29,184 bases of DNA from a virus (lineage: Duplodnaviria > Caudoviricetes): positions 1 through 29,184 of IMG/VR virus record IMGVR_UViG_3300037515_000316; one strand, 5' to 3'. This document shows positions 23,463 through 28,485 of the stretch, piece by piece (position 1 is the first letter of the stretch; each line of letters starts with the position of its first letter). The notes beneath the pieces were generated by a model. The model worked only from the letters and a program-made list of their open reading frames with translations. It did not search any database and was not told the DNA's origin. The position numbers and the translations under genes were made by a program.

Positions 23463-23788
23463 TTTTTTAAATTTTTATCAATATATCTATCATCCATATC
23501 TTTTCTAAATAAAAACATATATGATAAAAACATTGCATTACATAATAGATGTCCAACATGTGCTAATTTACTTTCTTTATCATTATCTTCACCTTCTAAA
23601 AAAGCATTTAAATGACGTTGTAAACTATCACAAATTTCTGTATATTTTAATCCTTTAGACCAATTCCATGAACTATATTTCTGTGCTCCAAACATAAGCA
23701 CCTGAACCATAGGCTCAAGTGCTTTGAATGAAACTAGTGACCATCTTAATTTTCCTTTATTATCTCTTGTTCCTATATTTTCAATCAT
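23459..23788 (-). CDS. dATP/dGTP diphosphohydrolase-like protein (DUF5664 type)
   Basis: GKLRWSLV, VLMFGAQKY...NW, SLQRHL and DKESKLAHVGH...NAMFL motifs. Confidence 0.85.
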   Translation of the reverse strand: MIENIGTRDNKGKLRWSLVSFKALEPMVQVLMFGAQKYSSWNWSKGLKYTEICDSLQRHLNAFLEGEDNDKESKLAHVGHLLCNAMFLSYMFLFRKDMDDRYIDKNLKK

Positions 23789-24618
23789 TTTTTCTAACTA
23801 CATTTTTTATATAATTATAAATTCTATTTAATCCTGTTATATCATCTGGTTTAGGTAATTCTTTAAAATAATTAACTGCACCATCAAAATATAAAGGACA
23901 GGTTTCTCCTCCACCACCTTCTCTTCCACCAATAATTTCTAGGAATCTAATATTATCTTTAAATGTAGTAATATCATATCCCATATATTCTCTTATTTCA
24001 TGTTTATAAGGACTAAATAATCCTAATATAACATCCGCATCTCTAAAAGTTAGTTTACAATCACCTAATCCATCTGCACTAGGTTTAAGCTTACTGGCTT
24101 TAAAGTTTTCAAGAGATTCTTGATTAGCGGCTTGTTGCTGAATTACAACAGGTATATATTTATACTTATTTCTAAGTCTAATTAAGTAATCTGATGATAA
24201 TTTTGTAATAGATTGATGTAATGAAAGTTTTTGACCATTTTCAGAATCTGATGATATTAAACCAATATGGTCTATAAATACCATTACATATTCTTCTGGG
24301 TCATTAGCTTCATAATAATCATCTATTTCAGTATCTTCACCATTTATACTAATTATTTTTTTATGTTGTACACCGTTGGCATTAGCATAATCCCTCATGA
24401 ATTTAAAAATTCCAAATGGGTTTCTAACATCATCGATGAACTCTACTATTTCTTCAATTTTATTGAAATAGGGTTTATATTTAGATATTAATTCTAAAGT
24501 TTGTTCTGTTAATATATTATCTTCTTTAGTACTTTTAAGGTCTTTAGGAGCTATTCTAAGACCTTCTTTTACATATAAGATATTAGAGAATGCTGATAGC
24601 ATTTTTTGCTCCTTACTC
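23781..24618 (-). CDS. dnaB: exon 3 of DnaB-like (SF4) replicative helicase
   Basis: Starts with the G of a split ATG codon, then SKEQKM. Walker B VFIDHIG, VVIQQQ, DADVILG and REG motifs. Confidence 0.88.
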
Positions 24619-24742
24619 CATTTTATTAACCTAAGCGAGTTTACCACTTAGTTCTATATATTACTATATAGTTTAGACTATATCTTCAATAACAGCTGTT
24701 ATTGCTGGGATTTCTTGGATATATTATATTCTAAATATTTTG

Positions 24743-24816
24743 TGGATATGATGAGAATCGAACTCACTTCACTACCCAACATTAAGTCGGGTCGCTTACC
24801 ATAAAGCTCCATACCC
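24743..24816 (-). ncRNA. tRNA-like cloverleaf (non-canonical; nominal anticodon TAA) embedded in helicase intron 2
   Basis: Acceptor GGGTATG/CATATCC, D arm GCTT-TATGGT-AAGC, anticodon arm ACCCGAC-TTAAT-GTTGGGT, T arm GTGAG-TTCGATT-CTCAT, discriminator A, no encoded CCA. Confidence 0.75.
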
Positions 24817-24927
24817 ATATTTAGTTTCAATATCTAGTCGTTCGACCTACTATAATCATTTAAATTATAGCTTGGTACGGGATTGTCCTATAAGGAGTTT
24901 CCCCGTTTAACCCAGTTAAGAGACAAG

Positions 24928-25665
24928 TTATAATTTGTATAACATTGAATTACAAATATAAGGTTCTATTAGTTTTCTAAAAGTTTCTTTTGAACTATTT
25001 TTTATATATAATCTATTTAAAGAATGTAAACTAGTATTTAAATTATACTTATCTTTCAAAAAATCTCTAAATTCATTTATATTTTTTTTTGTAAAAGAAC
25101 ATGTATGAATTTGATAAGCTGAAGTTCCTACTTTTGAACCATCATCCATATAATGAATAGCCATAGCAAGAGGTGTATAATATTTTTCTAGTAAATTTAT
25201 TGGTATTATTTTACCATTTTCTTTATAAAATTCATTATAAAAATAATTTAAATTTTTGTTAACTTTTAAATTAAATACAGTTGAACTATATATTTTATTA
25301 GTTATCTTATTAGGTGTTAATCTAACATAATCTTTAATATTTCCTAAATTAGGAAAATAAGATTTTTTATATTTAACATAATCTTTTTGTTTTAAAGAAT
25401 GTTGACATGTAAAAGTTGTACCTAAGTCATATTTTCTATTTTTTAAATTTCCGTCACCTAAAACACAACCAAAAATAACTTCTAATTGAATAGATGTTAA
25501 ATTATAAGGTATATGTTCTCTTAATGATTTCCTATTTAATTTATGAACTTTTAATCTATGATAATATATTACTTGTTGTGATACATTATATATATTTCCA
25601 ATTTCTGTGTCAGTTAATCCTTTATTAACTAATTCTTGTAATTCTTGTTTTTTGATACTAAACAT
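24928..25665 (-). CDS. LAGLIDADG homing endonuclease with N-terminal HTH, in L1 of helicase intron 2
   Basis: FGCVLGDGNL and AIHYMDDGS motifs, HTH-like GLTDTEIGNIYNVS. The ATG at 25665 follows the promoter. Confidence 0.88.
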   Translation of the reverse strand: MFSIKKQELQELVNKGLTDTEIGNIYNVSQQVIYYHRLKVHKLNRKSLREHIPYNLTSIQLEVIFGCVLGDGNLKNRKYDLGTTFTCQHSLKQKDYVKYKKSYFPNLGNIKDYVRLTPNKITNKIYSSTVFNLKVNKNLNYFYNEFYKENGKIIPINLLEKYYTPLAMAIHYMDDGSKVGTSAYQIHTCSFTKKNINEFRDFLKDKYNLNTSLHSLNRLYIKNSSKETFRKLIEPYICNSMLYKL

Positions 25666-25687
25666 ATTTATTTTTATTTGTATCCTA

Positions 25688-25719
25688 CAAAGGTACAAAA
25701 AATATATTTAATATCCAAA
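25688..25719 (-). promoter_or_regulatory. Bacteroidetes primary-sigma promoter for the intron 2 endonuclease
   Basis: TTTG (25719-25716), 20-nt spacer, TACCTTTG (25695-25688). Confidence 0.82.
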
Positions 25720-25738
25720 TTTTTGAGTACTTATTTTT

Positions 25739-25842
25739 ATCTCTAAAGTAAAATAGAAGATTTTTAAACGAACATTTAAATTATTATCTATTACTTGTTG
25801 AATAGTATTATACAAAAATAGCCAATCAGCTATTTGAGTTTT
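25739..25842 (-). CDS. dnaB: exon 2 (104 nt) of DnaB-like helicase, absent from the ORF track
   Basis: Translates KTQIADWLFLYNTIQQVIDNNLNVRLKIFYFTLE plus AT. Joins exon 1 to give Walker A ANSKIG|KT. The three exons total 1107 nt (368 aa). Confidence 0.9.
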
Positions 25843-25922
25843 CAATTTTGTTACTCTATACTAATTCTAGTACATGGTTATATCATTTCTGTATAACTCT
25901 ATATGTCACCATATAGTTCGGA

Positions 25923-26546
25923 TTATAAATAGTTAATTTTATAATGCATAGATGGAATTTTTAAAACATAAGGTTTAATTAAATTACATAATTTATATAA
26001 ATTTTCTTTATTAAATCGTATTCTATAACCATCATTACGTTTTATATAATTTAAATAACCGTTTATACCATATTGCGAAAAGCATAATAATAAGTTTTCT
26101 ATTGATTTTTTATCATAAGATATAGCTGTTATATCTCCATAATGATATTCATAGTTATTTTTCTTTTTATTAATACTTTTACAAAAACATCCATCATCCA
26201 TCCAATAAATTGCAAGAATTTCAGGTGTTATATTTTTAACCCATCGTTTATAAAATTTTCTTTTACCATTTTTATAAAATCTATTTCTAATAGATTCTAA
26301 TATATGATATCCAGTTGTATAAACTTTAATTAATTTTGGTATATTTTTACTTTTTTTTATTCCAATTTTACAATTAATATTTATATTATCTAATATTGAT
26401 TTTTTATATTCAATATAATCCATATGTCTTAAATGGTGAGCTATATCTAAATAAGCTCTTTTACTACCATTTTTTAGTTTAGGATTATGAATATTTCCAT
26501 CTCCAATAGTTAATCCTATTAATGTGTAATATCTATTTCTCTTCAT
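25923..26546 (-). CDS. LAGLIDADG homing endonuclease inside helicase intron 1
   Basis: LIGLTIGDGNI and LAIYWMDDG motifs. Confidence 0.88.
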   Translation of the reverse strand: MKRNRYYTLIGLTIGDGNIHNPKLKNGSKRAYLDIAHHLRHMDYIEYKKSILDNININCKIGIKKSKNIPKLIKVYTTGYHILESIRNRFYKNGKRKFYKRWVKNITPEILAIYWMDDGCFCKSINKKKNNYEYHYGDITAISYDKKSIENLLLCFSQYGINGYLNYIKRNDGYRIRFNKENLYKLCNLIKPYVLKIPSMHYKINYL

Positions 26547-26597
26547 ACTTACAATGTATTACTACTTTATTACTATTTATTTTACTATCTCATCAAC

Positions 26598-26900
26598 CTA
26601 AGAAAATATTGAATCAATCTGTTCACCTGTTTGTGAACAAAAGTTTCCATTACAATTACAAATAATATTTTTATTATATAATTTATCTTCTAATATACAT
26701 TTCTTAGGTTGTTCATTGTTAGTCTCTACACCGTTTTGTAAAATTATTTTAATCTTATTATATACTTGTTCTATAGAAGGAAGAGGTGCACAATCAGGAC
26801 TTTCTCCTTGACAACATCTATCTTTAGAACGAAGTAAACATTCTAATAAAATTAATTCTTTTTTATCAAGTGACGGCACGGGATTGTCTTTTTTATTCAT
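26598..26900 (-). CDS. Cys-rich 100-aa ORF overprinted on the intron 1 ribozyme core
   Basis: The ATG overlaps the stop of the upstream ORF. DNPVPS is encoded by Q, NGVETN by R, and the stop lies in the P8 3' strand. Translation is unproven. Confidence 0.5.
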   Translation of the reverse strand: MNKKDNPVPSLDKKELILLECLLRSKDRCCQGESPDCAPLPSIEQVYNKIKIILQNGVETNNEQPKKCILEDKLYNKNIICNCNGNFCSQTGEQIDSIFS

Positions 26901-27769: not shown

Positions 27770-27802
27770 TTTTTATATTTTTTAAAAGAGTTTCCCCGTT
27801 AA

Positions 27803-28243: not shown

Positions 28244-28320
28244 GTTATTAAAAATTAATTAATCCCTATTTCTAGGATTCTGAATTCAATTATATATTAC
28301 TATATAAAGGGGCAAAGTCT

Positions 28321-28485
28321 ACCAATTTTACTATTCGCAGAAATTAAATAATAACGTCCTTGTTCTATACCTGGAAGTTGTTTTTCAAATCTAGGTAATC
28401 CCCAAGGAATACAATTTATTTTACCATTTAATATCCTATTTCTTCTTTCAATTAAATTTTCATATACTCTTTCGTATATACTCAT
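28321..28485 (-). CDS. dnaB: exon 1 of DnaB-like helicase
   Basis: INCIPWGLPRFEKQLPGIEQGRYYLISANSKIG, the standard lead-in to the SF4 Walker A. 55 codons. Confidence 0.9.

Follow-up and report, generated by a model that had tools for sequence, protein, structure and literature searches.

No other helix of group I introns is as conserved as P7, and by the textbook view nothing can be inserted there. An intron in the helicase gene of the phage fragment studied here carries a homing endonuclease gene inside this very helix, which raises the question of whether, and how, such an intron could splice, and how the gene came to lie there. The analysed DNA (the window) is a stretch of 29,184 nt, positions 1 to 29,184 of the IMG/VR record IMGVR_UViG_3300037515_000316; the completeness of the source fragment is 29%.

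Host gene and core of intron 1

The gene at 28485-23781 (minus strand) encodes, judged by sequence, a crAss-like DnaB (replicative helicase); its exon 3 is 51% identical to DnaB of Cellulophaga phage phi14:2. It consists of the following parts.

28321..28485, minus strand: dnaB exon 1, which terminates in the Walker A Gly codon
25843..28320, minus strand: group I intron 1 (2478 nt), between helicase codons 55 and 56, terminal G at 25843
25739..25842, minus strand: dnaB exon 2
24619..25738, minus strand: group I intron 2 (1120 nt), S element intact, polymorphic, outside the mechanism discussed here
23781..24618, minus strand: dnaB exon 3

Joining of the exons (28485-28321, 25842-25739 and 24618-23781) gives a single open frame of 368 aa, in which the Walker A motif is made whole across intron 1. 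Contigs from runs X1 and X2 skip exactly 25738-24619, and intron 2 is therefore an optional insertion. It contains a tRNA-Leu(TAA) gene at 24816-24742 (minus strand) in the P7.1 position, between R (24842) and the P3 3' strand (24711). Two further group I introns were found in the window at 20900-20060 and 16170-15310 (minus strand), one with an apparently frameshifted endonuclease-like ORF and the other with a 207-aa opposite-strand ORF inside the core region.

The core elements of intron 1 are listed below, with P7 positions in Tetrahymena numbering.

28311..28323, minus strand: P1, with the U.G pair at the 5' splice site, from sequence
28281..28284, minus strand: P3 5' strand, partner 26715-26712, covarying in related introns
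27794..27799, minus strand: P4 5' strand (P element), partner 26883-26878
26720..26726, minus strand: R element, the P7 5' strand, positions 262-268
26594..26711, minus strand: P8, a 12-bp helix with arms 26711-26700 and 26605-26594, also present in the centroid structure
26588..26593, minus strand: J8/7, directly after P8
26584..26587, minus strand: upstream part of the P7 3' strand (307-310), 4/4 Watson-Crick with R
25920..25921, minus strand: C311-C312, partners of G264 and G262 (guanosine site)
25899..25916, minus strand: P9

This core was fixed by comparison with cassette-free relatives, P8 being the long helix that ends at 26594 and P3 a short, covarying helix with its 5' strand far upstream; an alternative P3'/P8 assignment within 26617-26594 was rejected in favour of the covarying one. 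As in other group I introns, there are the U.G pair of P1, the terminal G and a reading frame restored on removal; P3, P4, P6, P8 and P9 occur in canonical order and covary, with P3 short and set apart from P4. P7 with G264-C311 is not contiguous: its bases are all there, and the 3' strand is interrupted by 662 nt. Intron 1 is a structural variant of a group I intron and not a canonical member. The Rfam group I model gave no match to intron 1 and none to the intact intron 2 either. When the RNA of 26735-25838 was folded (the partner of the P6 strand lies outside this fragment), P7 was predicted in neither the minimum-energy nor the centroid structure; the former pairs the cassette leader with the P6 strand, and the latter keeps P8, the helix closing the cassette, and P9.

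The P3 5' strand is split from P4 (28284-27800, minus strand) by a GAAA hairpin and a second helix with a 146-aa ORF; since these keep the two apart, an insertion in P3 also appears to be tolerated by the family of intron 1. In total, intron 1 carries four non-nuclease ORFs (28243-26598, minus strand) of 146, 99, 191 and 100 aa, the 100-aa one threading Q, P6, R and P8; its relatives contain different cargo ORFs, some of them in P9. The cargo ORF before P4 is flanked by short direct repeats in the window (28264-28253 and 27812-27800) and in L006 (175-192 and 485-505), which suggests a possible route of cargo entry into these introns. The X1 contig has A for G (minus strand) at 26591 in J8/7, differing from the G of the relatives.

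The cassette between P7 positions 310 and 311

J8/7 and four P7 bases (26593-26584) are separated from CCGAAC (25921-25916) by 662 nt (26583-25922). These coordinates of the split, proposed in the initial annotation, were all confirmed on the minus strand, and the break between positions 310 and 311 bears out its central claim that a cassette splits P7, unlike the usual insertions in loops. A better intact S element, which that annotation had named as evidence against itself, was not found downstream of R within intron 1; the other S-like words of the intron, two only (27602 and 26808), are both upstream of R and hence in the wrong order. Removal of the cassette leaves exactly the S element of cassette-free relatives (L001). 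An X1 contig of 1215 nt covers both junctions with one base different (X1 may be the source sample), and three further contigs have an identical split arrangement, so that an assembly artefact was ruled out.

25922..26583, minus strand: 662-nt cassette
26572..26580, minus strand: 5' arm of the closing helix, non-coding
26560..26567, minus strand: 8-nt leader motif, invariant in 4/4 cassettes, ahead of a weak hairpin that covers the start codon
25923..26546, minus strand: two-motif LAGLIDADG_2 endonuclease gene, 207 aa, I-SceI/I-WcaI-like, catalytic Asp kept
25925..25933, minus strand: 3' arm of the closing helix, encoding the last residues of the enzyme
25922..25925, minus strand: decayed second copy of 307-310 (TAAT) at the cassette end, likely an old 4-nt duplication

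The endonuclease gene takes up 624 of the 662 nt, with its stop codon within the downstream TAATCC. Its product has the attributes of a two-motif LAGLIDADG homing endonuclease: a match to PF03161 (68 bits, cut-off 25), an I-SceI-like predicted fold (pLDDT 91; best Foldseek matches I-WcaI and I-SceI, E 1.8e-11, TM 0.71) and both acidic motifs, represented by D16, D117 and D118, which are invariant in 17/17 aligned relatives. Unlike I-SceI and I-WcaI, to which it is 22% identical, the enzyme is phage-borne. Maturases of the I-AniI and bI3 type came below these two enzymes in the fold search, a rank that does not decide function. The gene departs from the loop-encoded type of intron endonuclease, which occupies a peripheral loop and leaves the core helices unbroken.

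The ends of the cassette are joined by a helix of 9 bp with a 3-nt linker on each side. Equally long helices with the same left arm are formed by 245 of 29168 16-mers of the window (0.8%; 0.08% in L040, a second carrier described below), and the pairing probability of the helix in the folded insert is 0.75-0.99; owing to this rarity and high probability the helix is not explained by chance. Over four loci 35/36 of its cells are paired, and both sides have changed at positions 1, 3 and 8 within the crAss-like trio and at more in L040, despite the protein-coding 3' arm. As the cassette starts with A and ends with U in 4/4 loci, the helix may extend to the very ends of the insert.

Such a helix and the exact restoration of the relatives' S element by removal of the cassette would also be expected of a processing substrate, and the insert might leave the RNA first, either in a twintron-like step performed by a host nuclease and ligase instead of a ribozyme, or through another ribozyme. 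Several observations make this explanation, which the initial annotation had listed among four, quite improbable, and no feature was found in its support. First, only 38 nt of the cassette are non-coding, with no ribozyme elements and no Rfam match, so that it is not an inner element able to splice by itself, as in a twintron. Second, in the archaeal bulge-helix-bulge motif a 4-bp helix lies between two 3-nt bulges, one on each strand, whereas the cassette ends form a 9-bp helix with terminal linkers. Third, whichever register of the duplication is taken, the window and L006 lack a terminal G. Finally, the linker lengths differ in L040. At the DNA level, no joint over the cassette was seen among the X1 contigs, which drop rare forms; joints over the cassette in X6, considered as candidates for excision, proved to be short matches from related cassette-free introns.

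Recurrence and probable movement of the cassette

Two crAss-like loci, L005 and L006, encode enzymes 82% and 76% identical to that of the window at the same break point, and in L011 the enzyme is 79% identical and the right junction is the same. A more distant enzyme (38% identity) is encoded in L040 by a cassette of 640 nt, which breaks S at the same bond. L040 is an unrelated 36.5-kb phage, estimated to be 89% complete, in which the only major-capsid gene found carries the intron; the intron has a different kind of group I core and another endonuclease in L6. The split, described in the initial annotation from a single locus, thus recurs in four loci and three core types.

At 37 of the 81 helicase loci examined, an intron or an intron end was present at the same codon. 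S is contiguous in 32 of these (several are near-copies) and split in two (L005 and L006), one shows the right junction only (L011), and two are short of the core; contiguous S was accordingly found in 32/32 same-site loci without the cassette and with the core visible. In many of them S is letter-for-letter that left by removing the cassette. At the same helicase site, L001 (5699-6322) and L077 have a different LAGLIDADG gene in the P7.1 position, with S intact. In L075, L077, L082, L083, L085, L114, L115 and L118, the Walker A codons hold a second intron as well, just a few bases further upstream, which leaves a micro-exon.

In a tree of 25 helicases each of three carriers is sister to an intact locus (99/96, 100/100 and 100/100); as the carriers belong to three separate host clades beside intact relatives, the cassette appears to move between introns. 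Between the window and L005, dS is 0.455 for the enzyme versus 1.575 for the helicase. L006 and the intact L146 are 99% and 94% identical on either side of one differing block, which reaches from a point before P4 precisely to the downstream cassette junction, as a conversion tract would. From the host tree, dS and this conversion boundary we infer that the cassette is mobile, which the single-locus view had not included.

Because the exons of dnaB and the capsid gene share nothing, the S element of the intron is their common context, and the enzyme probably cuts S-element DNA. Overhangs in the LAGLIDADG endonuclease family are 4 nt long, and the decayed second copy of 307-310 fits a duplication of this length. 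All six contiguous S-like elements of the window and of the L006 contig belong to the U312 type, compared with 46 U and 42 C in a biased sample from elsewhere; this is a slight indication of self-avoidance.

A profile search with the enzyme returned 12 representatives at E < 1e-30, followed by a gap. In a quick tree, the enzymes of the carriers lie in one clade of 25/37 rows (SH-aLRT 98), for 4/25 members of which both cassette junctions are visible as DNA. The N-terminal extension of one member, P0014, reads like translated Q, R and half-S followed by the leader (back-translated from protein). At the control loci of more distant LAGLIDADG_2 enzymes, many of them near-copies, half S before the ORF was found in 0/36 and contiguous S after the ORF in 30/36. 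Scanning with the leader motif yielded 24 loci, of which only the two already known carriers were genuine; further scans for clade members gave no carrier besides L005, L006/L012, L011 and L040, and annotated phages and plasmids contained distant enzymes only (<=31% identity). It is conceivable, at somewhat less than even odds, that the guanosine-binding helix has become the specialised homing site of a LAGLIDADG endonuclease clade with at least 25 members, which jumps between unrelated introns and phages with its own RNA clamp, the ribozyme working with a three-way junction through its active site; the cassette would then be a parasite of a parasite, directed at catalysis itself.

Proposed assembly of P7 and splicing of split introns

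The four bases upstream of the cassette form Watson-Crick pairs with their own R in 16/16 cases (positions 307-310, four loci), and the four bases at the cassette end in 11/16, plus one G.U pair; at positions 311-312 the upstream strand pairs in 0/8 cases and the downstream strand in 8/8. The upstream bases track host changes (U268-A307 in L005, G265-C310 in L040) and the downstream bases do not, which places the DNA insertion point between 310 and 311. As proof of present function the upstream pairing is weaker, since it may be inherited from the recipient intron and simply mark the insertion point: U268-A307 is already present in the intact L146, so that post-insertion compensation in L005 was rejected, and intact loci with G265 are mixed at 310 (C310 in three and U310 in two of five; 44 loci scanned, most of them not introns). 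Given G265.U310 in 2/5 intact loci of its type, L040 does not force the split; in L006, the core arrived together with the cassette.

The reading that we favour, with a probability of about 0.6, has P7 forming across a three-way junction without removal of the insert, and the enzyme homing into intact S elements. Two strand segments would make up the 3' side of P7: the one ahead of the cassette would contribute four pairs and the CC behind it the two pairs of the guanosine site, the cassette ends being kept together by the closing helix in a three-way junction. The intron would then splice with the insert in place, possibly aided by the encoded protein or host factors. The break could be tolerated as it lies on the 3' strand, four nt past the last catalytic-metal ligand of J8/7, with the R strand continuous. 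The enzyme would cut intact S in the DNA of cassette-free introns, and repair would then copy its gene into the break. On its first arrival it would have used a cut of its own making, leaving a 4-nt duplication that is now decayed. It would parasitise the best-conserved sequence of the intron and could not easily be lost through imprecise deletion. Assembly across a new junction was the first of the explanations offered in the initial annotation, and pairing of both pieces and covariation of the closing helix argue for it.

Alternatively, the downstream copy alone could form the P7 3' strand, with the insert between J8/7 and P7 (between 306 and 307) or the junction sliding along the duplicated bases. 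The second copy of 307-310 is TAGT in L011 and L040 and CAGT, TAAT or CAAT in the others; the downstream strand is thus a full TAGTCC in L011 and L040, makes five pairs in L005, and keeps the U310 equivalent in 5/5. However, in the window and L006 this P7 would require C266.A309, of which there are no true cases in 81 contiguous S elements. G309 is present in 80/81 elements found without constraining position 309, the lone exception being a mis-pick; 44/125 R-like contexts lacked S, including the carriers and chance matches. L006 has a second mismatch with R, and position 307 is already used by the closing helix. From their sequence, the window and L006 cannot form a normal P7 from the downstream strand. 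The proposal of the initial annotation that the downstream TAATCC substitutes by itself is therefore disfavoured by near-universal G309 and the two mismatches of L006, and we regard it as unlikely overall, if a possible reading for L040 and L011.

The position of the break bears on the same choice. In the accessible parts of PMC13168695, guanosine binds G129-C176 of the Azoarcus intron, and the metal ligands are C87, G127, G169, A171, U172 and A173. By analogy, the break would map between Azoarcus 175 and 176, outside the set of metal ligands, whereas with a downstream-only P7 it would fall between 171 and 172 and hit the metal-binding phosphates (A171, U172). C262 of Tetrahymena, on the R strand, is a metal ligand according to the accessible text of PMC1184590, and the R strand is unbroken in the split introns.

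In a nearest-neighbour model, with filler linkers and without triples, stacking or metal, leaving the two guanosine-site pairs open gains 5.6 kcal/mol of stability at each of the four loci, so that closing them would need tertiary contacts or assistance from a protein. In L040 the same model puts the downstream-only strand ahead of the split (-7.1 vs -5.4), as the downstream-only explanation would have it, and the two are tied in L005.

The junction penalty of this model would also agree with introns that do not splice, in which case the carriers would be defective, or would depend on complementation by a helicase of the host or by a second phage in the same cell, and the cassette would spread as a pure parasite. 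The J8/7 variant of X1 points the same way, as does the loss of DnaB, one of four genes in most crAss-like phages, in some groups (accessible parts of PMC7886860), because of which a host helicase might stand in. Against this, the same break occurs in a major-capsid intron, and the exons and all core helices are intact in the carriers, with host gene exons open after joining. A capsid gene product cannot be supplied by the host. The helicase is under purifying selection: dN/dS is 0.097/0.62 for the window and L085, 0.016/0.164 for L006 and L146, and 0.153/0.818 for two intact introns, that is, a ratio of 0.10-0.16 in carrier-sister pairs vs 0.19 in the intact pair, on branches that include pre-insertion time. 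Furthermore, the closing helix covaries and the site is kept across 38% protein identity; among the X1 contigs listed, none is without the cassette, yet an intron 2-less allele is found there (contigs drop rare variants). Loss of splicing is thus an improbable explanation.

Three other introns with contiguous S lie within the window, and a neighbouring intact ribozyme, intron 2 or another, might splice intron 1 in trans or lend it a P7 strand. This half of the fourth proposal of the initial annotation, the other half being a maturase, is hardly credible, as intron 2 is missing at its site in L005 and L006, is likewise missing in L040 and is skipped in the X1 and X2 contigs, and no second S was seen on the intron strand in the genome of L040.

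The component parts of the favoured arrangement, P7 assembled across the junction, are known from other systems, and the arrangement itself, as read from sequence, was not found in print: full-text searches of mainly open literature yielded no insertion inside P7, and the accessible parts of PMC2988022, PMC4964425, PMC2504315, PMC11835236 and PMC8393795 describe none. Intron ORFs are usually confined to loops or extend into core sequence (PMC3984707 and PMC11878797, accessible parts). Like the phage group IA2 introns (T4 td/I-TevI and sunY/I-TevII; Bastillevirinae), intron 1 combines a P1-P10 core in a conserved phage gene with an encoded endonuclease, the start codon in a hairpin and the ORF end overlapping the core; unlike in those introns, the cassette breaks P7 between A265-U310 and G264-C311 (PMC3984707, PMC2988022 and PMC11878797, as far as their available text goes). 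In the endonuclease-gene invasion model (Loizos et al., per the available part of PMC3984707), an endonuclease likewise cuts intron DNA and its gene is inserted at the cut; there, the cut site in the intron is part of a loop and only by chance similar to the exon target, whereas here the S element is the site shared across unrelated host genes, and invasion recurs. The optional ORFs of Podospora nad1-i4 and cox1-i7 (biorfic introns) also enter a resident intron independently, but these are mitochondrial, with no split of a catalytic helix reported in the accessible text (PMC4964425). Similarly, mobE in nrdA of phage Aeh1 and mobA in T4 gene 60 split the host product at a critical region, yet the product is a protein and not the active-site helix of a ribozyme (PMC2988022, accessible part). 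Twintrons whose inner intron must leave first have a critical part of the outer intron interrupted too; unlike their inner element, the cassette has no ribozyme of its own (PMC8393795, accessible part).

Splicing with a split P7, if true, would overturn the rule that endonuclease genes occupy outer loops only. Helicase and capsid introns in which 640-674 nt separate the two central layers of the guanosine site would serve as a test of required covalent continuity, and a split P7 could offer a new attachment point for ribozyme engineering. The split introns may also be a direct case for the endonuclease-invasion model, and an S-element-directed nuclease would represent a new kind of homing target, common to many introns. 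Such introns would escape covariance-model searches that expect a contiguous P7.

The leader motif (26567-26560, minus strand, in the window; also in L005, L006 and L040) holds another UAGU able to pair with R, which could be a promoter or a decoy. Ten identical bases are common to the end of exon 1 (28335-28326) and the left cassette junction (26589-26580) on the minus strand, partially in L005 and not in L040; they are possibly a chance match or a link to the target of the enzyme.
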